Source of the DNA: a virus
Lineage: Duplodnaviria; Heunggongvirae; Uroviricota; Caudoviricetes
Direction: 5' to 3' (one strand)
IMG/VR virus record: IMGVR_UViG_2706794687_000013
Length of the DNA stretch: 9,541 nt
Part shown: positions 1 to 9,541 of the stretch, one piece after another
How positions within the stretch are numbered: the stretch's first letter is position 1
How the letters are laid out: each line of letters begins with the position of its first letter
The notes under the pieces: generated by a model
Seen by the model: only the letters and a program-made list of their open reading frames with translations
The model's database searches: none
What the model was told of the DNA's origin: nothing
Program-made: the position numbers and the translations under genes

Positions 1-116
1 GAACAGGAGGGACAGCTGATAGAAACAGAAGCCACTGGAGCACCTCAAAAACACCATCATACACTAAATCAGTAAGTTGGCAGCATCACCCCGCCACAGA
101 ACAATTATTGCTTTTG

Positions 117-133
117 CCGTTGATGACAATAAA
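117..133 (+). repeat. left copy of a 16/17-bp direct repeat (CCGTTGATGACAATAAA) flanking the R-M cassette
   Basis: Read directly: 117-133 CCGTTgATGACAATAAA matches 3161-3176 CCGTTATGACAATAAA, an 11-bp exact core plus CCGTT with one indel. The copies sit about 110 bp outside the REase stop and about 70 bp outside the MTase start. Confidence 0.6.
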
Positions 134-242
134 GTTTTTATCGCAGGCGTATACCACGGTGGGCAAATCTATGAAACCGATTTTTTATCCAGTGCACCGT
201 AAAACCCCCATCCTTCAGGGCGTGGCGGATATCAAACTTTGG

Positions 243-1325
243 TCATTTTCTCTGGCTGATCTTTACCGGATAACCATCCCGAAGATCAATTAAGTGCTCC
301 GGTTCAGAAGCAAACCATGCATAAGATCCCCACGCCAATTCTGGTATTGCCTTTTTAAAAGGCAGAGCACTTCTGTCCATAAATGCCGTAAGGAATGCAA
401 GATTTTTCTCGCTGAACCCAGCGTCAATAGCCAAATGAGTGAGAGTAACTTTTCGTTCCCTGTTTATAGGCCCATCTGTCGCAACTACTTCAGTGAAAAC
501 TACAAGCATGTCCGAACCCGTTCGGTCCTCTCCCAAATCAATCAAAATAATATCTGGAAGTGCTTTTGAGGCATCAATATTCAGCCCCAATGCTTTTGCC
601 AATACATCATCCTGAGCAACAACTTTATTCCCGGATTCAGACAACCAGAGCACAGTTGGATTCTTAAGAAAATTAGGAGCAAAAACTTCGATGACGGCCT
701 TAGCTATTGTACTTGACGGGCCCGGAGCTAAAGTTCTCTTCTCTCCATTTGGGAAAGTGACGACTACGGCATCAGCAGCAATCACTGCCCCTGATTTCAA
801 TAAACGCAACCTAGCAAGAGCGGCTTTGTTCAAATGATTTTCTTGCCAGGAACTTATTGCACTCAGCAGCGAATCTCCTTCAAGCCCGGCATCAAAGAGT
901 GCTGCAAAAGAGCGATTCAAACTGTAACGAGGACGAGAGGATGTGGTGGGTATACCTTTACGCTCAACAATTGCATTGCAAGGTATTAGGCCATTTTTTA
1001 TAGTTTCATCACGTATTGGCTCACGCGTATTTTCCGCATACCATGCATCAGCAGGCCTTATCTTTTGTTTAGAGAAAGTCATCTTTACCCAGCTTTCTCT
1101 GGACGCATCATCAGTAAGAGCAGCCTGCGAATCTCCCATACTTACAACCTGGCTGGGCCTTATCCATCGCCCCAGCCCCTCAACCGCACCAGCATAAAAC
1201 ATGACAAAAATTGTTTTTGCAGCTATTTCCCGAATTAAATATCCACGATTCTCAGTCCCTTCAGGGAAAATTAATTGTAATCTTTCCCGGATAACATTCA
1301 ATGGGGGAACAACAGGCAGATTCAT
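243..1325 (-). CDS. putative Type II restriction endonuclease, partner of the adjacent methyltransferase (possibly BsuBI/PstI-like; family recalled from memory, unverified)
   Basis: 360-aa ORF. Its ATG (1325-1323) overlaps the MTase stop (ATGA at 1325-1322), implying translational coupling. GGAG lies 10 nt upstream. GC is low (about 40%), like the MTase. No MTase or specificity-subunit motifs; no nuclease motif could be confirmed by eye. Confidence 0.55.
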   Translation of the reverse strand: MNLPVVPPLNVIRERLQLIFPEGTENRGYLIREIAAKTIFVMFYAGAVEGLGRWIRPSQVVSMGDSQAALTDDASRESWVKMTFSKQKIRPADAWYAENTREPIRDETIKNGLIPCNAIVERKGIPTTSSRPRYSLNRSFAALFDAGLEGDSLLSAISSWQENHLNKAALARLRLLKSGAVIAADAVVVTFPNGEKRTLAPGPSSTIAKAVIEVFAPNFLKNPTVLWLSESGNKVVAQDDVLAKALGLNIDASKALPDIILIDLGEDRTGSDMLVVFTEVVATDGPINRERKVTLTHLAIDAGFSEKNLAFLTAFMDRSALPFKKAIPELAWGSYAWFASEPEHLIDLRDGYPVKISQRK

Positions 1326-3094
1326 GCAATCATCACTCCATAGAAACCAGCGATAGTTCTCTCAATAATCCGTCTGTGGACGCCAGCATCAATTAACGAT
1401 TGAATCTCCATCACCTGCTCCAGAGAAGGCAACGGGATTGAATTCAATTCATAGGCCGAAACAGCAACACTTCCGCTTATACACCTGAACGCCCGATCGA
1501 CAACATGCGAATTAAGTAGCATATCAATAACATCAGGGCGAACCGCAGAGAACAATCCGTTTGAATATACAATATTAATATGGTTTTCAACTACTACGCC
1601 ACCAGTTTCATCTATAAATCCCTGAGGTAAAATTGCCGCTAAAATCCTTCTGTCCTGTTCCTTCGATGTTGTCCGCTGAACAAGCACACATTCAGATTTT
1701 GTCACAAGGAAACCCTGTTGTGGGGTTATATCGATATAGGGAACATGATTTTTTCTGTCTGCACTAAAACGAAAACCAGCTGAAGTTATTGATTCCGCCC
1801 AGACTAATGGGTAGCTATTTTTTCCTTTCGTCGTACGCAACTGCGACTTAAATCGATTCCAGACTAACTGACCTGTAGAGACTGAGTATCCCAGATCAGC
1901 TAAACGCGTAGACATCTGTTTTAATACATTAAGAAAACAGGCATCATCTTTAACGCGTGGCAAAAGCCACGTTGCTCCACCTTTTTCTATATCAACATTA
2001 CCTATTTTCTCAATTTTTGCTTTGTTCAACCCCTTAGGGACAAGTGAGGATACCTGGGCCCGAACTTTATGTTCTCCCGCCTTGAATGCTGTCAACATTG
2101 TTTCCTGGAGAACATCGTCAAAGACCCCATCCCTGTCAGTGACGAAATCAAGGGCATACGGAGTAGTTTTTTCGGTCAAAAGNNNNNNNNNNNNNNNNNN
2201 NNNNNNNNNNNNNNNNNNNNNNNNNNNNNNNNNNNNNNNNNNNNNNNNNNNNNNNNNNNNNNNNNNNNNNNNNNNNNNNNNNNNNNNNNNNNNNNNNNNN
2301 NNNNNNNNNNNNNNNNNNNNNNNNNNNNNNNNNNNNNNNNNNNNNNNNNNNNNNNNNNNNNNNNNNNNNNNNNNNNNNNNNNNNNNNNNNNNNNNNNNNN
2401 NNNNNNNNNNNNNNNNNNNNNNNNNNNNNNNNNNNNNNNNNNNNNNNNNNNNNNNNNNNNNNAATGGATCGATCTCTATCCCCTTTAAACGACGACTGAT
2501 TCTCCTCAACATCCATTCAGGGGAAGACCCCTTGTCTTTTTTTAACATTCGAATGGCTACTGGTGCCAAAAATGCACCGCCACCACACGCAGGATCAATA
2601 ACCGATGCATGAGAAAAATCAACACCAGACTTTTCAGCCAGGTCCAAGAGACGCGCTACCAAAGGTGGGGGGGTATAGTAAGCCCCCAATTCCGAACGGT
2701 AAGCGGATGGCAGCATTACCGTATAAATTGACCCAATCAGATATCCAGCGTCCTCCGCCGGAAATTGAGCAATAAGCTCACCTGTTCGTTCAGCGAGCTC
2801 GCGTGCATCACATGGAATGTCTTCTATGTAAACAGTGTGCGGTACTGCCCTCATTTTAATGCTGCTTTTTTGCTTTTTTGCAAGGGTATCCCAATATGCA
2901 GCTACGATGCTGAAGCAGTATGAGCGGGCATGCATCAACCTTGACTGCCCGGTTTTGTAATTGCCCGCATAACCTTTGGCCATGGCTTTACAAGTTTGAT
3001 ATCTTTCCAGATTAGAAAACTCATTATCTGTAAAAAAATCAAAATGTTGCACATTCATAATGTAAAATCCTAATGTATCAAACATGCGGGCCAT
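1322..3094 (-). CDS. N6-adenine DNA methyltransferase (N6_Mtase/HsdM-like catalytic domain with a TaqI-like C-terminal target-recognition region); Type II R-M methylase
   Basis: 590-aa ORF. 'GAYYTPPPLVARLLDL' and 'DPACGGGAFL' match the AdoMet-binding motifs (X and I) of gamma-class amino-MTases. The C-terminal part ('LADLGYSVSTGQLVWNRFKSQLR...') resembles TaqI-like recognition domains. Motif IV (NPPY/F) presumably lies in the masked stretch 2183-2462; frame continuity across the mask is assumed from length. Alternative start ATG 3058 (AGGA 9 nt upstream). Confidence 0.8.
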   Translation of the reverse strand: MARMFDTLGFYIMNVQHFDFFTDNEFSNLERYQTCKAMAKGYAGNYKTGQSRLMHARSYCFSIVAAYWDTLAKKQKSSIKMRAVPHTVYIEDIPCDARELAERTGELIAQFPAEDAGYLIGSIYTVMLPSAYRSELGAYYTPPPLVARLLDLAEKSGVDFSHASVIDPACGGGAFLAPVAIRMLKKDKGSSPEWMLRRISRRLKGIEIDPXXXXXXXXXXXXXXXXXXXXXXXXXXXXXXXXXXXXXXXXXXXXXXXXXXXXXXXXXXXXXXXXXXXXXXXXXXXXXXXXXXXXXXXXXXXXXXLLTEKTTPYALDFVTDRDGVFDDVLQETMLTAFKAGEHKVRAQVSSLVPKGLNKAKIEKIGNVDIEKGGATWLLPRVKDDACFLNVLKQMSTRLADLGYSVSTGQLVWNRFKSQLRTTKGKNSYPLVWAESITSAGFRFSADRKNHVPYIDITPQQGFLVTKSECVLVQRTTSKEQDRRILAAILPQGFIDETGGVVVENHINIVYSNGLFSAVRPDVIDMLLNSHVVDRAFRCISGSVAVSAYELNSIPLPSLEQVMEIQSLIDAGVHRRIIERTIAGFYGVMIA

Positions 3095-3160
3095 AACATC
3101 TCATGGTGGCGCATAGCAAACTGGCCCGAAGAATATCACGCACCAAGTCGATCTCATAAC

Positions 3161-3176
3161 CCGTTATGACAATAAA
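3161..3176 (+). repeat. right copy of the 16/17-bp direct repeat (CCGTTATGACAATAAA) flanking the R-M cassette
   Basis: Read directly; same orientation as the copy at 117-133. Lies in the 214-bp gap between the MTase start and the upstream gene. Confidence 0.6.
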
Positions 3177-3308
3177 TCTTTGTAGCTGAACTCACTTGGT
3201 GATTTGTCAATCATTCCTGGCCTCCAGTTCGTCCTGAATCTCTTTATCGAGTTCACCGTATTTGTTAGTCCTCATCACTCACGACTTGACTTCCAGAAAT
3301 AACCTTGA

Positions 3309-3665
3309 TTATTCGGGGCTATATTTTGTCACCCTGCGTATCCGCGCTTTCGCATTACGCTCAATCTGGATTAGCTTTTCTATATTTTTTCGCCTTTCCC
3401 GCTCCTCCTGGCGCAAGAGCCTTACATCATCTGCCAGTCTGGTTTCTCTTTTCGCCACAGAGAGCATCCAGTCAAATGGCTCCACAACTGCACCGCAAAT
3501 TTTACAGCGGACCTGACGCTCTTTTTCGTCAACCCGGACAGAAGCGTGATGGCAATATGGTCTTTCCGATGGCTCATAAAGAAAATTAACCTGATTACGA
3601 GGGTTATCCTCTTTTACCGGAAATAAAACAATATTGCTTAACTCATCTTCTGGTTTTATTTCCAT
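3309..3665 (-). CDS. hypothetical protein with a Cys-cluster (zinc-ribbon-like) N-terminal half and a basic coiled-coil-like C-terminal half
   Basis: 118 aa from ATG 3665-3663, preceded by a strong RBS (GGAGAGGAGC immediately upstream). Pattern 'YCHHASVRVDEKERQVRCKICGAV' (C-x16-C-x2-C). C-terminus is rich in R/E/K ('RLLRQEERERRKNIEKLIQIERNAKARIRR'). The track's longer form (to 3722) lacks an RBS. Confidence 0.55.
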   Translation of the reverse strand: MEIKPEDELSNIVLFPVKEDNPRNQVNFLYEPSERPYCHHASVRVDEKERQVRCKICGAVVEPFDWMLSVAKRETRLADDVRLLRQEERERRKNIEKLIQIERNAKARIRRVTKYSPE

Positions 3666-3722
3666 GCTCCTCTCCTTTGATGCGAATGCCAGCGGTAATT
3701 GAAGCCTGATAGCTAATTTCAC

Positions 3723-4145
3723 TCACAGTACCGCCTCCTGAAAATCACCCTGATAGAAAGCCGGTACACGCTGCATAACTTCACTCTTCCGGCACTCGCG
3801 ACAGATTATGTTCTGATGTCTGTCGTAGCGGCGTATTTCTCCGTCCGGTAATGACCAGATAAGGTCCGGATCAACCACAGATGGTTTCTTCAGCTTTGCC
3901 CTCGAGAGTTTTTTGCGGGCGTTTTGCCAGTCCTTACGAGCCTGTTCAGACGGGAATAACCCGTAGCCAGAGTTGTATACATCCCCACTGGCAACCAGCT
4001 CTCTGGCGAGAACGCTTATTAAATATCTTGTCGCCCCGGTTTTAGCTTCCAGTTGTCGTAACGTCTCGCGCCCACTCTGGCGTACGAGTTCAACAACCTG
4101 CCCCTTAATTTTTTCCCGCTCTTCCTGTGTAAATACTTTTGCCAT
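3723..4145 (-). CDS. hypothetical prophage protein (possible winged-helix N-terminal region, CxxC near C-terminus)
   Basis: 140 aa from ATG 4145-4143 (the track's 4160 start is TTG). Tightly packed in the leftward operon, 15 bp after the upstream gene's stop, with a G-rich stretch before the ATG. 'VVELVRQSGRETLRQLEAKTGATRYLISVLARELVASGDV' looks HTH/wHTH-like. No family recognised. Confidence 0.5.
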   Translation of the reverse strand: MAKVFTQEEREKIKGQVVELVRQSGRETLRQLEAKTGATRYLISVLARELVASGDVYNSGYGLFPSEQARKDWQNARKKLSRAKLKKPSVVDPDLIWSLPDGEIRRYDRHQNIICRECRKSEVMQRVPAFYQGDFQEAVL

Positions 4146-4160
4146 AAGCGCCCCCGGCAA

Positions 4161-4886
4161 TCACTTTTCCGACACAATACGACCGGAGGAATCGACAATC
4201 TGTCGAACAATATCCCGGTGCTTGTTCAGCTCCCGCAACGCGGCGCAGACACGCTCCCACTTCTGGACATGACTTTTCGCCCGACGCAGTTCGCGGTTTG
4301 CCATATGCAGCGATGGTAAAACCAGGTCATCCGCTTGCGTTTCGGTGAACGATGGCAACGACTGCACAATGTCCGCCACAGTTTCTGTTTTAATTTCTTC
4401 CTGTGTTGCAGCTTCCTGTACCGGTAACGCAACACCTGCTGGCTGAGGAAAGACTTTACCATCCGTTTCCGCTATGGATGCGGCTTTCGGCTCTGCCGGT
4501 AAATCAGCGCCCGGTATGCAGTACCGAAATTTACCGCCCTGATTCACGCGAATCAGACGCCCTTTGCTGATTGCCATGGCCAGCGATGAATTCGCCCGGC
4601 GGGAGGTAATCCCGAACATCAGTGCCAGCTCATCCGCCGTTTGTGGGCCATGTTGTTCAATCGCCTCAGTCAGCATTTGCGCTGTCACTTTCGGTACCGG
4701 TGACACTGGTTCACTTTCACCAGCCTGAATCAGCCACCACATCGAACCCTTGTTATCCGCTTCACCACGGCGCTTCAGTTTCCACAGTTCGTTGACCGCA
4801 TCTTCACGGCTGATTCCAAGGCGGGACGCCACCACATGTGAAGAGGCTCTTTTCAGTGCTTTCAGTGCGTCAAATACAGTTTCCAT
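4161..4886 (-). CDS. hypothetical prophage protein with two putative winged-helix-like repeats (possibly a DUF-type phage protein; unverified)
   Basis: 241 aa from ATG 4886-4884, with GGAGG 8 nt upstream; the track's 4904 start is TTG. Two similar segments ('[40 protein letters not shown]' and '[43 protein letters not shown]'). Starts 21 bp after the DnaC-like stop. Confidence 0.55.
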
Positions 4887-4907
4887 TAAAACATCCTCCA
4901 ACAAAAA

Positions 4908-5420
4908 TTACTTCACAACTCCCGGAAAGCTGACATTTGAACGCCAGCTATCCCAGTTAAACGTCACCCACCGACAACCGTTCATGGTCATGCGGTCCAT
5001 AATCCTCTCACCAAGAAGCGTGCTCATTGCGGCATGATTCAGGTTTGTTAACATCCCGACACTGCACAGTGATGCTGTCCGGCGATCAATTATCTGGTGC
5101 AATACCACCTGCTCGTTTTTCGTCTCCCGCTGAATGCCTATTTCATCCAGGACCAGCAAATCAACCCCGCAAAGCTCCTGTAAAAATTTTTCACCGGATT
5201 TGCCGTTGTCGTAGCTGTCATGCAACACGCTCATGACATCAGACTCGGTGACGATAATCACGCTGCGCCCCTTCGCCATCAGCCGGTTACCCATCGCCGC
5301 TGCAAGGTGATTTTTCCCGGTGCCGGTTTTACCGCTGAACACAAAATTCGTGCACCCGGTCATCAGTTCGTCAGCTATGGATTTGGCCTGGCTCAGCGCG
5401 TATTTTTGCCCGTCGTTCTG
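4908..5420 (-). CDS. DnaC-like AAA+ helicase loader (lambda P-equivalent / YdaV-like replication protein); 5' end lies in masked region
   Basis: Visible 170 aa carry Walker A 'SGKTGTGKNHLAAAMG' and Walker B 'LLVLDEIG', typical of DnaC/IstB-like loaders. The true start (estimated about 75 codons further 5') is hidden in the N-run 5421-5683. The track's N-terminal 'MFSERRRFLGRTG...' (TTG at 5747) is probably not real. Confidence 0.8.
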   Translation of the reverse strand, partial: QNDGQKYALSQAKSIADELMTGCTNFVFSGKTGTGKNHLAAAMGNRLMAKGRSVIIVTESDVMSVLHDSYDNGKSGEKFLQELCGVDLLVLDEIGIQRETKNEQVVLHQIIDRRTASLCSVGMLTNLNHAAMSTLLGERIMDRMTMNGCRWVTFNWDSWRSNVSFPGVVK

Positions 5421-5685
5421 NNNNNNNNNNNNNNNNNNNNNNNNNNNNNNNNNNNNNNNNNNNNNNNNNNNNNNNNNNNNNNNNNNNNNNNNNNNNNNNN
5501 NNNNNNNNNNNNNNNNNNNNNNNNNNNNNNNNNNNNNNNNNNNNNNNNNNNNNNNNNNNNNNNNNNNNNNNNNNNNNNNNNNNNNNNNNNNNNNNNNNNN
5601 NNNNNNNNNNNNNNNNNNNNNNNNNNNNNNNNNNNNNNNNNNNNNNNNNNNNNNNNNNNNNNNNNNNNNNNNNNNNNNNNNNNGG

Positions 5686-6666
5686 GAGCAACCAGGGGTT
5701 TTCAAAATTCCGGTCCGGCCCAAAAAACGTCGTCGCTCGCTGAACAAATTCCGTTCCCGCTTTCCCGGTCGCCGCCAGGTATCTCGCGTAACGCCTCACA
5801 CCATCCAGCATGGTCTCTGGTGGCACCCCCTCGCGCAATCTGGCCTTCCAGGCACTGAATGCGGATTTCTTCGGGTTTGCCCCGGCACGCAACGGGTATT
5901 CCCGCCAGACCTGTTCGAACACATCCGGATAATCCACTCGTCCCACAGGCTGCCCGGTGTTTTCCGGGGCTACCCGATCGGCTTCCCGCTGAATGGCGGA
6001 ATCGGCTTCAGGCTGCTGCAGTTGGAGTGATTGCTCCGGCCTTGCGGTCATCACCTGCTGCACAGCGCCCGAATCGGCTTTCAGCGCATACGCTGAATCG
6101 GCTTCCGGTGTCGAGCCTGCTGGCTGACCAGGATTGACGGTCTGAACATCCCCTGCCTGGTTCGTGGCGTTTTTTACGCCATGGACCATAGTGTTTTGAT
6201 CTTCTTTATCTGTATCTTTATCTGTATCTGTCGTGACTCGTCGTGACATGTGCGTGACATTTCGTGACGCGCCGTGACAATCGCCATTTTGTTCCCGCTT
6301 TCTTTCCCTCTCTCGCTGCGCCCTCTTGCGCTCTGCAGGAGATTTTGCGGTTTGCGAAATATTGCCGTTGTCCTCTTTAAGCACCTGGCGTTTTTCCCAT
6401 CCAGTGATTAAATCACCATCAAGTACCCGCCCCTGCATCGTCTGCAAAATTGAATCAATTACCTCTTCTGTCACGTCGAGCGCACTTGCCAAATCTTCTG
6501 TCGTGACATCAATGTGACCTCGCGTGACATTTCGTGACGCGCTCACCAGGAGGTGGATATACACTGCCATCACTGTTGCAATTGGCTGCCCTGACACCCT
6601 GGCAATTGTTCGCCACTTAGGGTCATTTGGCATGTCATGCCATAATCTGAGCCAGGCGTTAGCCAT
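5686..6666 (-). CDS. phage replication initiator (lambda O-like / YdaU-like replisome organizer); 3' end lies in masked region
   Basis: ATG 6666-6664 with AAGAGG upstream (track start 6672 is GTG). C-terminal half has the 'FEQVWREYPLRAGANPKKSAFSAWKARL...' motif recalled from phage replication-initiation proteins. The gene contains the iteron arrays and an acidic/basic linker. The stop is inside the N-run; the track's tail 5371-5420 ('ERRAKIRAEPGQIHS') is an artefact of reading through the mask. Confidence 0.65.
6231..6278. repeat. iteron-like array: five CGTGAC copies at 10-11-bp spacing, adjacent to an AT-rich tract and a 12-bp tandem repeat (putative ori core)
   Basis: CGTGAC at 6232, 6242, 6253, 6263 and 6273. 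Immediately preceded by 6191-6230 (about 30% GC), which contains TTTATCTGTATC x2 (6205-6228). Lies inside the O-like gene. Confidence 0.55.
6470..6542. repeat. second iteron-like array (CGTGAC x3 plus TGTGAC and one inverted GTCACG) including a 21-bp perfect copy of part of array 1
   Basis: GTCACG 6470-6475; CGTGAC at 6502, 6523, 6533; TGTGAC at 6513. GCGTGACATTTCGTGACGCGC is identical at 6522-6542 and 6252-6272. Confidence 0.55.
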
Positions 6667-6737
6667 ACTCACCTCTTCTGATACCGAATCTTTTTACTCA
6701 CGAGTTGCCGGGAGCGATTCGATATGGCTATTGTCAG

Positions 6738-7163
6738 TCAATGTACTGCCACAGCATTTCCTGCCGGGCCACCACGGTTCATCTGATTGAAACCGGCGAT
6801 TGCCACTGCGACAAAATCATCAGCGTCTCTCACCAGTCGTTCATGCGTCTCCACCAGTTCCCGAAAATAAGCTGAACTGTGGCTGCGCATTCGAGCCACC
6901 AGCGGAGGTGGCATTGCCCTTTCGATCGCAGGTAACAACGCCTGAATTTTTTCAACAGCGTCAGGGGTGTCTTTATCCAGCCAACGGAAAATCTTTTGGG
7001 TGTTGAGATAAAGCGTGTTGTGCTTGCTGTCGTTATGCAGAACCGGAAACGTCATTCCCAGTTCGAAATAAACCCTGGTTATTTCAGCTGCCGGAACTTT
7101 TTCACCGTCCGGATGCGCCCAGGCTTTCATCGCCATGCGGATGTGTTCATGCTTGATTTTCAT
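6738..7163 (-). CDS. ydaT: YdaT-like prophage regulatory protein (possible CII-like role in the switch)
   Basis: 141-aa ORF beginning 'MKIKHEH...'. Its ATG (7163-7161) overlaps the upstream gene's stop (ATGA). Size and position (second gene after the Cro-like gene, before the O-like and DnaC-like genes) match Rac ydaT as recalled; sequence identity not verifiable here. Confidence 0.6.
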   Translation of the reverse strand: MKIKHEHIRMAMKAWAHPDGEKVPAAEITRVYFELGMTFPVLHNDSKHNTLYLNTQKIFRWLDKDTPDAVEKIQALLPAIERAMPPPLVARMRSHSSAYFRELVETHERLVRDADDFVAVAIAGFNQMNRGGPAGNAVAVH

Positions 7164-7423
7164 GAATCAACCCCCGCCGATGGTTGTGTGTTAGCCTGAA
7201 ACTCAGCAGGCAAGCCGTCAGTTGGGTTGGGGTAGGTTTTACTGTCAATCTCATGTGGGGTCACCACCCATCCCGTTGCTTCACACCAACGTAATATTTT
7301 TTCTCCTGTAAGTTTTGCACGCCCCGTTATAACGTGGCTGACCATCCCTTGGGATGCGCCAACAATCTCAGCAAATGAACTCTGGGTTATATGAAAATGA
7401 TGCAAATATTCTCCAAGATTCAT
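7160..7423 (-). CDS. ydaS: YdaS-like Cro-type HTH DNA-binding protein (first gene of the leftward early operon)
   Basis: 87 aa from ATG 7423-7421 (the track's 7450 start is TTG and would run into the operator region). HTH-like 'ITQSSFAEIVGASQGMVSHVITGRAKLTGEKILRW'. Divergent from the repressor gene. Confidence 0.6.
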   Translation of the reverse strand: MNLGEYLHHFHITQSSFAEIVGASQGMVSHVITGRAKLTGEKILRWCEATGWVVTPHEIDSKTYPNPTDGLPAEFQANTQPSAGVDS

Positions 7424-7534
7424 AATCCGCCCTATGTGATGTGTTACCAATGCATAATTAATAGCACTGTTATTTTTAAAAGTAAATAGTGATACTATTT
7501 CAAAGTGATTAGCAATCTTATTAGAATTGGATGT
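7424..7534. promoter_or_regulatory. divergent promoter/operator region with two 15-bp palindromic operator-like sites (O1 7460-7474 AATAGCACTGTTATT; O2 7485-7499 AATAGTGATACTATT)
   Basis: 111-bp AT-rich gap between divergent starts. O2 is a perfect 6-3-6 palindrome. Candidate rightward promoter TTCAAA(7499-7504)-17-TAGAAT(7522-7527), ending 7 nt before the repressor ATG. Candidate leftward promoter overlapping O1/O2 on the minus strand. Confidence 0.5.
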
Positions 7535-8035
7535 ATGAAAAGAAAATCATTGTCAGACACCGACCTCAACGCCGCCAGAAGACTGAAAGAAATCTGGATG
7601 GCAAAGAAATCTCAGTTGGGATTGACTCAGGAACGTGCGGCGGAAATTATGGGGTTTTCAACACAAGGGGCGGTAAGTCACTACCTAAATGGTCAAACCC
7701 CACTAAACCTTGAGGCTGTTCTAAAGTTTGCTGGCTTACTGAAAGTTCCCCCTGAGTCAATCAGGCCAGACATGGTAGATTTGCTGCAAATTGCAAGGAT
7801 GTATTGTCGAGAACCACAGCAAGATAACATAGTCGCATTACCAGCAGACACAGAACAAACAGAGGATGAACTACCGTTTGCCGTAGAGCCGATGGAACGA
7901 GATTTAATCCATACGTTCAGAGCTTTTCCGAAAGAAGATCAAGAACACATGCTTCAGGAGATGAAAGATAAAAAAGAATCAATGGATCGTACGGTTGCGC
8001 GGTGGTTAGCTGCACAAAAAGGCCGTCGCGCCTAA
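7535..8035 (+). CDS. paaR: XRE-family HTH transcriptional repressor (PaaR/RacR-like prophage repressor)
   Basis: 166 aa from ATG 7535 (the track's 7505 start is GTG). Canonical HTH_XRE 'LGLTQERAAEIMGFSTQGAVSHYLNGQTPLNLEAVLKFAGLLKV'. Divergent from the Cro-like gene; followed 19 bp later by the antitoxin-toxin pair. Symbol inferred from operon architecture, not sequence identity. Confidence 0.75.
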   Translation: MKRKSLSDTDLNAARRLKEIWMAKKSQLGLTQERAAEIMGFSTQGAVSHYLNGQTPLNLEAVLKFAGLLKVPPESIRPDMVDLLQIARMYCREPQQDNIVALPADTEQTEDELPFAVEPMERDLIHTFRAFPKEDQEHMLQEMKDKKESMDRTVARWLAAQKGRRA

Positions 8036-8054
8036 ATCAGAGGAGATATGTAAA

Positions 8055-8249
8055 ATGAGTACAGTCCTTTCCCCAATGGTTTCAGAATTTGAGACAGTTG
8101 AGCAAGAAAATAGTTACAACGAATGGCTGCGGGCCAAAGTAGCAGCAAGCCTCGCGGATCCCCGCCCGGCGATTCCGCATGATGAGGTAATGGCGGAAAT
8201 GGAACAAATTATTGCCCAAATTGCTGCTGCAACTCACAGAGGTGAATAA
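8055..8249 (+). CDS. paaA: small antitoxin of a ParE-type toxin-antitoxin module (PaaA-like)
   Basis: 64 aa; AGGAG 9 nt upstream of ATG 8055. Stop TAA 8247-8249 overlaps the toxin ATG (TAATG). Acidic, low-complexity C-terminus. Size and position match the recalled PaaA2 antitoxin; symbol assigned by context. Confidence 0.65.
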   Translation: MSTVLSPMVSEFETVEQENSYNEWLRAKVAASLADPRPAIPHDEVMAEMEQIIAQIAAATHRGE

Positions 8250-8539
8250 TGTTACCCGTTTTATGGCTACCATCTGCTCGTGATGATTTGCGCCAGATCG
8301 TAGCCTACATAGCTAAAGAAAATCCCGCGGCAGCACGCAGAATGAAAATTCGAATTGAAACATCCGTTTTGCCGCTCACAGAGCATCCTTACCTGTATCC
8401 TCCAAGCGAGCGAGTTCTTGGTCTTCGTGAAATTGTAACTCATCCTAACTACATCATCCTTTACCGAGTAACAGCATCAAGCATAGAAGTAGTAAATATT
8501 GTGCATTCTCGAAGACAGTATCCAGGCAAAAACAGTTAA
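8249..8539 (+). CDS. parE: ParE/RelE-superfamily toxin (ParE-like)
   Basis: 96 aa. 'LPVLWLPSARDDLRQIVAYIAKENPAAARR...GLREIVTHPNYIILYRVTASSIEVVNIVHSRRQYP' fits the ParE/RelE pattern. Translationally coupled to the upstream antitoxin; GAGG upstream. Confidence 0.8.
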   Translation: MLPVLWLPSARDDLRQIVAYIAKENPAAARRMKIRIETSVLPLTEHPYLYPPSERVLGLREIVTHPNYIILYRVTASSIEVVNIVHSRRQYPGKNS

Positions 8540-8555
8540 TTATTCCCGCCGACAG

Positions 8556-8577
8556 AACCACCTTAGGGTGGTTTTTT
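8556..8577 (+). terminator. Rho-independent terminator after parE
   Basis: AACCACC-TTAG-GGTGGTT perfect 7-bp stem with 4-nt loop followed by TTTTTT, 17 bp after the parE stop. Confidence 0.8.
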
Positions 8578-8595
8578 CTTGCCCCAACAAAAAAC

Positions 8596-8638
8596 AATAG
8601 CGATGCTATTTACATCAAAAAAAAATAATGATGCTATT
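8596..8638. promoter_or_regulatory. second operator-like pair (O3 8596-8610 AATAGCGATGCTATT; O4 8624-8638 AATAATGATGCTATT) related to O1/O2
   Basis: O3 is a perfect 6-3-6 palindrome with the same half-site AATAG(C/T) and GAT spacer as O2. O4 shares 13/15 positions with O3. Sits between the terminator and the next rightward gene. Confidence 0.5.
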
Positions 8639-8819
8639 GTTTCAGGCGTCAACCCACCCCGCCCCACAGAATGCAGGGCAATACTTCGAGTTACCAGACA
8701 GTGGTCAGGGGTTAAGTAGCCAGCCCGAGGCGTAAGAACATGACGGCAGGGTTCAATCTTTAACTATGCAGCAGGTTTTTTGTTCCGCCACCCCGGCGTT
8801 AAGGGGAAATGAGGTCAGC

Positions 8820-8972
8820 ATGGATACTATCGATCTTGGCAACAACGAATCTCTGGTGTGCGGCGTGTTCCCTAACCAGGATGGAACGTTTACCGCCATG
8901 ACGTATACCAAAAGCAAAACGTTTAAAACCGAATCTGGCGCGCGTTGCTGGTTAGCCAGAAACACTGACTGA
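8820..8972 (+). CDS. small hypothetical prophage protein (possibly YdaF-like; unverified)
   Basis: 50 aa from ATG 8820 with GAGG 5 nt upstream. The track's longer form from ATG 8766 lacks an RBS. Confidence 0.5.
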   Translation: MDTIDLGNNESLVCGVFPNQDGTFTAMTYTKSKTFKTESGARCWLARNTD

Positions 8973-8983
8973 TGAGGCTGACG

Positions 8984-9349
8984 ATGGAATTTAAAGATTT
9001 ACCGTCTGATGTACAGAAAACAGCAGCTCATACATTGCATTCTGTGCTGCGAGAAATCGGGAAAGATATTGCAAGCGAGCCAGCAAAAGATCTGGCCCGG
9101 AAAATCAAGACCGCTTTCGTTGAGCTTTATAATGTTGGCACTGACTCTGAAACTGTCGAGACCAAGACCGTAAGTTCACCAATATTCTCACTTGAGCCAA
9201 GCGTATTATCAGGTGAAATATGCACCGAGATTTCCAGCGAACTGCTTCCGGTAATACGAGAAGCAATTCGCCGTCGCGGTTTGGATGGAAGTTATGATCA
9301 TGACGTTCTGCAAGTTCTCAGGACAATGGTGACTTCACTGGGGATTTGA
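8984..9349 (+). CDS. hypothetical prophage protein
   Basis: 121 aa from ATG 8984 (GAGG 6 nt upstream). Alternative ATG 8972 overlaps the upstream stop (TGATG). No family recognised. Confidence 0.45.
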   Translation: MEFKDLPSDVQKTAAHTLHSVLREIGKDIASEPAKDLARKIKTAFVELYNVGTDSETVETKTVSSPIFSLEPSVLSGEICTEISSELLPVIREAIRRRGLDGSYDHDVLQVLRTMVTSLGI

Positions 9350-9541
9350 TCCCTGCGTCCTCTAAGCTTTTGATATAGCGGTCCTCCAAGAAGCGGTAAA
9401 TTTTGTCGAAATCATCTTTTCCCTCTGGTTTATTCAGAGGATTACAGGACCCGTAAGTAGCGGCATACATTTCAACCGTTTGGTAATGACTCCAACTTAT
9501 TGATAGTGTTTTATGTTCAGATAATGCCCGATGACTTTGTC
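9318..9541 (-). CDS. possible 3' end of a leftward gene entering from beyond the window (partial, hypothetical)
   Basis: Minus-strand frame is open from the window edge to TGA at 9320-9318 ('...FDKIYRFLEDRYIKSLEDAGIKSPVKSPLS*'). Overlaps the 3' end of the 8984-9349 gene by about 30 bp, so only one of the two may be real over the overlap. No start visible. Confidence 0.3.
   Translation of the reverse strand, partial: QSHRALSEHKTLSISWSHYQTVEMYAATYGSCNPLNKPEGKDDFDKIYRFLEDRYIKSLEDAGIKSPVKSPLS

Follow-up and report, generated by a model that had tools for sequence, protein, structure and literature searches.

When a pair of restriction-modification (R-M) genes lies between two copies of a short direct repeat, the question arises whether the repeat records how the genes came in and offers a way for them to be lost. 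The stretch of viral DNA analyzed here (IMG/VR record IMGVR_UViG_2706794687_000013, Caudoviricetes; 9,541 nucleotides (nt), hereafter the window) raises this question, as a first-pass annotation made from the sequence alone had described its R-M cassette as bracketed by a 16/17-bp direct repeat, compositionally foreign, and inserted as a unit through target duplication or repeat-mediated recombination, so that it could be lost the same way. The explanation that we favor, with a probability of about 0.85 for the explanation taken as a whole, is that the R-M pair is carried by a lambdoid prophage as exchangeable nin-region cargo and that the repeat is a coincidental resemblance of two unrelated sequences, with no part in the insertion. 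The features on which the argument turns are the following.

91 to 202, plus strand: 3' fragment of a ParE-family toxin gene, made of the last 36 codons and the stop, matching the intact 103-amino-acid ParE that stands beside ParD in the loci L001, L003 and L094
117 to 133, plus strand: left repeat copy, CCGTTGATGACAATAAA, parE coding sequence with the codons GCC GTT GAT GAC AAT AAA (AVDDNK)
243 to 1325, minus strand: Type II restriction endonuclease of the BsuBI/PstI family, 360 amino acids, recognized by Pfam and PADLOC
1322 to 3094, minus strand: N6-adenine DNA methyltransferase (methylase), with an alternative start at 3058 that gives 598 amino acids, partly masked by N at 2183-2462
3161 to 3176, plus strand: right repeat copy, CCGTTATGACAATAAA, evidently part of the cassette's own upstream region

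The repeat itself is present as it had been described, core included. The two copies have the same orientation and align with 16 matches and one 1-nt indel around an 11-nt exact core (ATGACAATAAA), and the best extension of this alignment reaches 23 matches in 28 columns, after which the similarity fades. Their placement just outside both ends of the cassette is true in a loose sense: both lie outside the two genes, but the left copy is within the parE gene, 109 nt past the endonuclease stop (243), and the right copy is 66 nt upstream of the methylase ATG (3094).

The left copy is judged to be older than the cassette, since it is read in the parE frame and is found letter for letter in L002, an E. 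coli prophage without the cassette. In other alleles the residues encoded at this place vary (DDNK, DGNK, DSRK). The intact ParE homologue matches the Pfam family ParE_toxin (E=1.9e-9), and E. coli FDAARGOS_943 (L001), VL7S7 (L003) and L094 carry the same locus with intact parD and parE, convergent with the endonuclease gene and followed by DUF968, RusA and Q. The disrupted ancestral open reading frame (ORF) that had been seen across the two copies does correspond to two existing small ORFs (one starting at ATG 123, 'MTIKFLSQ...', the other reading 'MTINLCS*'), but ATG 123 is out of frame with parE and is spurious.

The right copy, for its part, appears to belong to the conserved region upstream of the methylase gene, because this stretch is shared with the related cassettes of Kluyvera, Citrobacter and a third host, and because the Kluyvera locus L100, which has no parE nearby, matches it at 15 of 16 positions at the homologous place (CCGTTATGACAATCAAT). 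It is absent from all six of the alternative-cargo alleles described below. Each copy thus exists without the other, which is what an independent origin predicts and a duplication at insertion does not.

The junctions lie elsewhere. Six E. coli prophages that have both flanks and carry other cargo between them were examined in detail (L002, L085, L086, L087, L088 and L089). On the left, homology to the cassette allele ends at 188 (188/189) in all six; on the right, it resumes at 3305 (3304/3305) in five of them (L002, L085, L086, L088 and L089), and L087 breaks at 3720. The block that varies is 189-3304, with its edges at the stop codons of two flanking genes, and the C-terminus of ParE reads ...DFL* in the alternative-cargo alleles versus ...DFLSSAP* in the cassette allele. 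The left repeat copy stands 55 nt from its junction, within conserved sequence, and the right copy 128 nt from its own, within the variable block. Among the cargo found in the slot of these six alleles are DUF7167, in hypothetical proteins, DUF4014, together with an HNH endonuclease, DUF551, and another S-adenosylmethionine (SAM) methyltransferase. Alignment of alleles lacking the cassette, the check that the first-pass annotation had proposed, finds no single repeat copy at the junction, and the joins at 188/189 and 3304/3305 are unrelated to the repeat. Three further features delimit the slot.

189 to 242, unstranded: allele-specific filler consisting of four extra ParE codons (SSAP), a stop codon and a 40-nt spacer; homology to the alternative alleles ends at 188
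3218 to 3304, unstranded: allele-specific filler between the cassette and the 118-amino-acid ORF, with no homology to foreign cassettes or alternative alleles, seen only together with the cassette
3309 to 3722, minus strand: conserved small nin-region ORF (annotated as 118 amino acids in relatives), the right conserved flank of the slot

From 3305 onwards, five of the six alternative-cargo alleles share the ORF at 3309-3722 with 91-93% identity; the Pfam match of this ORF to Zn_Ribbon_TF is weak and below cut-off. When the two flanks were joined at 188|3305 into a composite query, 54 E. coli genomes covered at least 80% of it and, among the matches listed, always split into two or more pieces by intervening cargo. 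Of 5426 E. coli genomes, 2 contain the segment 3095-3310, each with the full cassette, and no product of excision or deletion, such as would be expected if the cassette could be lost by the route proposed for its arrival, was found among the 5426.

Elsewhere, the same cargo has other neighbors. Relatives of the endonuclease with 81-89% amino-acid identity are present in Kluyvera huaxiensis (L100), Citrobacter sedlakii (L103) and a third enterobacterium (L104), where the cassette sits in the nin region of different lambdoid prophages; the upstream neighbors (P, DUF977 and Ea22-like genes) differ, and the downstream side has a DinI or RecA-like gene, RusA and DUF968 in place of parDE. None of the three loci encodes ParE or has the left copy. 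DNA homology between the window and these foreign cassettes runs from 238-283 to 3167-3217, with a nucleotide identity of 75-81%. The exact endonuclease is found in Shigella sonnei, where it is extremely common. What is expected of exchangeable nin-region cargo, namely conserved flanks with alternative content and the same cargo with other neighbors elsewhere, is in both respects found here. The proposal that the cassette was inserted as a unit is therefore borne out insofar as it is horizontally exchanged cargo, given the six alleles with other genes and the same methylase-endonuclease pair in other lambdoid prophages; it fails in the role given to the 16/17-bp repeat as mark or mediator of the insertion, since the cassette occurs without the repeat pair in L100, L103 and L104 and the allele junctions are unrelated to the repeat.

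The course of events suggested by these comparisons would be as follows. The R-M pair would have been carried between the conserved 118-amino-acid ORF and a convergent parDE toxin-antitoxin pair, having reached this slot by ordinary modular exchange of lambdoid phages. Later, in S. sonnei, an IS1 would have cut parE and the late half of the prophage would have been lost, leaving a 9.4-kb remnant between direct IS1 copies.

Nowhere is conservation with the foreign cassettes higher than in a stretch that includes part of the right copy.

3131 to 3169, minus strand: conserved non-coding element upstream of the methylase gene, 39 nt, with a palindrome CATAAC-CC-GTTATG at 3155-3168

The right copy overlaps this element by its first 9 nt; the element is 90-95% identical in three foreign prophage contexts versus 74-85% for the coding DNA. 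Between 35 and 37 of its 39 positions are kept in L100, L103 and L104 only. The element is a candidate promoter or operator of the phage-borne clade; a universal operator upstream of the methylase gene was considered and rejected, as the element is absent from distant (chromosomal) homologues. Expression of the cassette probably starts from its own upstream element; a simple scan for consensus promoters and terminators found none on the coding strand upstream of the methylase gene. Between the 118-amino-acid ORF and the methylase gene there are also two tiny overlapping minus-strand ORFs (3168-3283), MRTNKYGELDKEIQDELEARND (3283-3215) and MIDKSPSEFSYKDLLS (3218-3168), which share an ATGA overlap. 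MIDKSPSEFSYKDLLS ends with a stop codon within the right repeat copy and is the sole one of the two that is conserved with Kluyvera at the DNA level.

The identity of the two cassette genes rests on several concordant matches. In particular, the endonuclease carries both domains of its family above cut-off (BsuBI_PstI_RE, PF06616, 9.3e-45; BsuBI_PstI_RE_N, PF17728, the N-terminal helix-turn-helix (HTH), 1.2e-30) and is called REase_II by PADLOC over residues 3-351 (2.8e-128). The methylase is called MTase_II (6.7e-300) and, on the unmasked sequence of L001, has the Pfam domains Eco57I and N6_Mtase, with NPPY at residue 260; its length is 610 amino acids in unmasked relatives, not the 590 read from the window. 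The stop of the methylase gene overlaps the start of the endonuclease gene (ATGA). What defines a Type II R-M system with a BsuBI/PstI-family endonuclease, both endonuclease domains and an adjacent N6-adenine methyltransferase with NPPY, is thus present, and the gene pair is predicted to encode such a system, methylase first and endonuclease second, with the corresponding enzyme activities. RefSeq annotation already gives the two genes as a BsuBI/PstI-family endonuclease and a methyltransferase. The nearest solved relative of the endonuclease is SdaI (2ixs), which cuts CCTGCAGG. The window contains two CTGCAG sites, and a literature search on the specificity or methylome of the S. sonnei enzyme returned nothing for this R-M pair. 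In one S. sonnei genome (L092, GCA_040189005.1) the methylase annotation is split in two (133 and 428 amino acids) beside an intact endonuclease, which may come from an error in sequencing or from a real disruption of the methylase in that strain.

The resemblance between the two flanks is nominally unusual, and we do not dismiss it on statistics. Of 2000 dinucleotide shuffles of the narrow flanks (91-242 versus 3095-3308), 3 attained the observed local score and 13 had an exact 11-mer match; for wider flanks, the corresponding counts were 9-13 and 18-19 of 2000. There is, in addition, a second weak collinear match (184-203 / 3243-3262, 16/20), and for a chaining statistic that includes it, 5 of 1500 shuffles and 9 of 1089 random pairs of real sequence from the window attained the observed value. 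The argument that the core was unlikely by chance in two flanks thus holds nominally (about 0.2-1% of shuffles), but the pair was picked post hoc, after the whole window had been read, and the window contains 33 exact 11-mer direct pairs and 49 direct-repeat families.

Several points weigh against a coincidental repeat in exchangeable cargo. The similarity of the flanks is, at the frequencies just given, nominally rarer than chance, and it reaches slightly past 17 nt. The six alleles share one 188/189 junction on the lineage of the cassette allele and are not six independent events. A true empty site was not found in the composite flank query of E. coli genomes, 54 of them with both flanks. 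The fillers 189-242 and 3218-3304 were never seen without the cassette, in E. coli genomes, in exact-pattern scans of viral contigs, which returned cassette-bearing loci only, or in two metagenome scans, which gave no match. Moreover, just past the left copy, at 131-170, the parE fragment is 72-82% identical to other alleles, compared with 90-100% up to about 130 and in most other bins; the changes at 131-170 are nearly all at synonymous third positions. A homologous crossover may have occurred near 104-135, and the pattern hints at a separate ancestry for the parE 3' end of the cassette allele.

This divergence is also what favors an alternative that we regard as possible, if clearly less probable than not, in which the cassette came together with a diverged parE 3' end through homologous recombination between parE alleles, the left crossover falling in the identical stretch 104-135 and the right copy having no role. 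However, identity is patchy elsewhere too (some 5' bins have 88-92%), and these are small numbers. Such recombination refines the explanation by modular exchange more than it competes with it. A different kind of homology is assumed if 3161-3260 is taken as the decayed relic of a second parE 3' end, so that the two copies would be anciently homologous, the cassette having at some time been located within or next to a parE gene and taken part of it along. The two collinear weak matches (117-133/3161-3176 and 184-203/3243-3262) are what such a relic might leave; with two 1-nt gaps restored, the right copy reads AVDDNKVF(V)A, near the AVDDNKVFIA of ParE, and it continues ...AAATCTTTGTAGC, like the parE continuation ...AAAGTCTTTATCGC. 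Yet the similarity fades after about 28 nt, and the second weak match spans the 188/189 junction, so that it is not all parE sequence. In addition, nhmmer at maximum sensitivity, run with a profile of seven parE alleles and E<=100, matched the true fragment at 90-188 and nothing at 3161-3260, and the position of the first 9 nt of the right copy, in an element conserved above coding DNA, argues for function and not for decay. A parE relic is therefore unlikely.

The most improbable of the alternatives is the one that the locus first suggests, in which the cassette was brought in whole, and could be excised, through the repeat, acting as a target duplication or as a recombination substrate. In favor of this model, the repeat exists, is direct and would nominally be unlikely in flanks specified beforehand, and R-M units with flanking direct repeats have already been described (PMC2853133). 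Loss by this route would leave one copy, with the block 134-3176 gone and parE ...GATGACAATAAA joined to TCTTTGTAGCTGAAC, the kind of product that was not found among the 5426 E. coli genomes. Against the model, neither copy abuts the variable block, given the distances from the junctions noted above; the sole copy that aligns with the cassette-free alleles is the left one; the right copy occurs in a parE-free context; and the cassette is found elsewhere without the repeat pair. A length of 16-17 bp with an indel is below the more than 30 bp of long target duplications and above the fewer than 10 bp typical of transposons. The ends of the cassette have no terminal inverted repeats, the only inverted pair nearby being 228-239 / 2992-3003 (12 nt), with one arm inside the methylase gene. 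A transposon-like R-M unit, with terminal inverted repeats and a short abutting target duplication, was likewise rejected.

Composition does not set the cassette apart at its edges. The variable segment 189-3304 has a GC content of 44.1% (0.36-0.39 at third codon positions, GC3), the replication genes from DUF977 to ydaT (3723-7163) 51-55%, and the immunity and toxin-antitoxin region 7201-9481 45.0%. The adjacent conserved genes are equally low, with 42.0% in the parE fragment and 44.9% in the ORF 3309-3722, so the GC content does not change abruptly at the edges of the cassette but does so near 3723. Individual 60-nt lines overlap widely (25-58% GC in the cassette versus 32-67% in 3301-7200). 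In all four hosts the GC content of the cassette is 42-44%, mostly against 49-53% in the surrounding 3 kb. The description of the cassette as compositionally foreign is accordingly right in that its GC content is lower than that of most of the prophage, but its conserved flanks share this property; the low GC content is compatible with acquired cargo.

The real long direct repeats around the R-M genes are of another kind.

1 to 90, unstranded: end of an IS1 copy (IS1 nt 679-768) that truncates parE, 100% identical to the IS1 of phage P1
9482 to 9541, unstranded: start of a second IS1 copy (IS1 nt 1-60), 98% identical to IS1 and in the same orientation as the first

Outside its masked runs, the window matches L090, an S. 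sonnei chromosome, with 100% identity. The N runs at 2183-2462 (280 nt) and 5421-5683 (263 nt) stand for 340 and 322 nt in L090, so that coordinates to their right are compressed. Positions 91-9481 are a 9.39-kb prophage remnant between two direct 768-bp IS1 copies, which are a far better substrate for loss than a 16-mer. The right IS1 arose by simple insertion: L107 has its 9-bp duplication CAACCGTTT, and L109 shows the site still empty. For the left IS1, complete S. sonnei genomes show no target duplication, and chromosomal genes lie on its far side (mannitol dehydrogenase, ydfZ, a GntR regulator, dcp), which indicates that parD, the 5' part of parE and the late genes of the prophage were lost. 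Because the cassette lies within the IS1-bounded segment, the endonuclease appears on contigs of about 9.3 kb in thousands of S. sonnei draft assemblies.

To the right of the cassette, the remnant retains lambdoid early genes: the small Zn-ribbon-like ORF, DUF977, DUF1627, a DnaC/IstB-like ATPase, an O-like gene, ydaT, cro and a divergent HTH regulator. Within the O-like replication gene there are GTGAC-rich direct repeats at 6190-6280 and 6500-6540 (for example 6240-6278 versus 6500-6538) and a tandem TCTTTATCTGTA at 6203-6226, which look like origin iterons. Beside cro, positions 7505-8539 hold a three-gene module made of an HTH regulator (176 amino acids), a PaaA2-family antitoxin (64 amino acids) and a ParE toxin (96 amino acids), an arrangement that we take to resemble paaR2-paaA2-parE2. 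It would be a second ParE-type module of the prophage, besides the parDE truncated by IS1. One might speculate, although we rather doubt it, that the R-M pair and the HTH-PaaA2-ParE module, as two modules able to kill cells that lose them, have kept the remnant fixed across S. sonnei despite the direct IS1 copies, through which it should easily be deleted, or else that the palindrome-bearing 39-nt element serves the phage-borne clade as a control site in place of a C protein.

The useful result is thus negative and methodological: a repeat with the appearance of an insertion scar, which had even withstood a naive chance test, was found, by comparative genomics, to consist of copies with separate origins, with the junctions elsewhere. 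Otherwise the locus matters little, being an ordinary and already annotated prophage-borne Type II R-M cassette.

Among known systems, it resembles lambdoid morons and other nin-region cargo in being a lower-GC block (42-44%) between conserved genes of the early-right operon, present in some and absent from other related prophages, and it differs from them in no material respect. An own promoter and terminator are often cited for morons. As for R-M systems, a BsuBI/PstI-type cassette (CTGCAG), EcoGIII, has been described in Stx2a lambdoid prophages of E. coli O104:H4, O145:H28 and O103 (PMC3893438). Like EcoGIII, the pair studied here is a Type II system of a BsuBI/PstI-family endonuclease and an N6-adenine methylase that forms accessory cargo of a lambdoid prophage and varies between strains; the two are nonetheless distinct, since the endonuclease here has only about 27% identity, across 75% of its length, to the enzyme of those phages, and the prophage and the slot also differ. 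Identity with EcoGIII was rejected on this ground. In view of this low identity, and of a nearest structure, SdaI, with a different site, CTGCAG specificity is not to be assumed.

Two classes of R-M loci described by Furuta, Abe and Kobayashi (2010, PMC2853133) are relevant to the repeat. In insertions with a long target duplication, the copies abut the insert, exceed 30 bp and both align to one target copy at the empty site. The present locus resembles these in having an R-M pair flanked by a direct repeat and without a transposase or integrase of its own, but differs in that the copies do not abut, have 16/17 nt with an indel, and only the left one aligns (in L002). In the allelic 'substitution' class, the flanks align between genomes, and unrelated genes, more than 1 kb of them, stand in place of the R-M region. 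[quoted passage not shown] Within that scheme, the alignments place the locus as an allelic substitution, and not as an insertion accompanied by a long target duplication.

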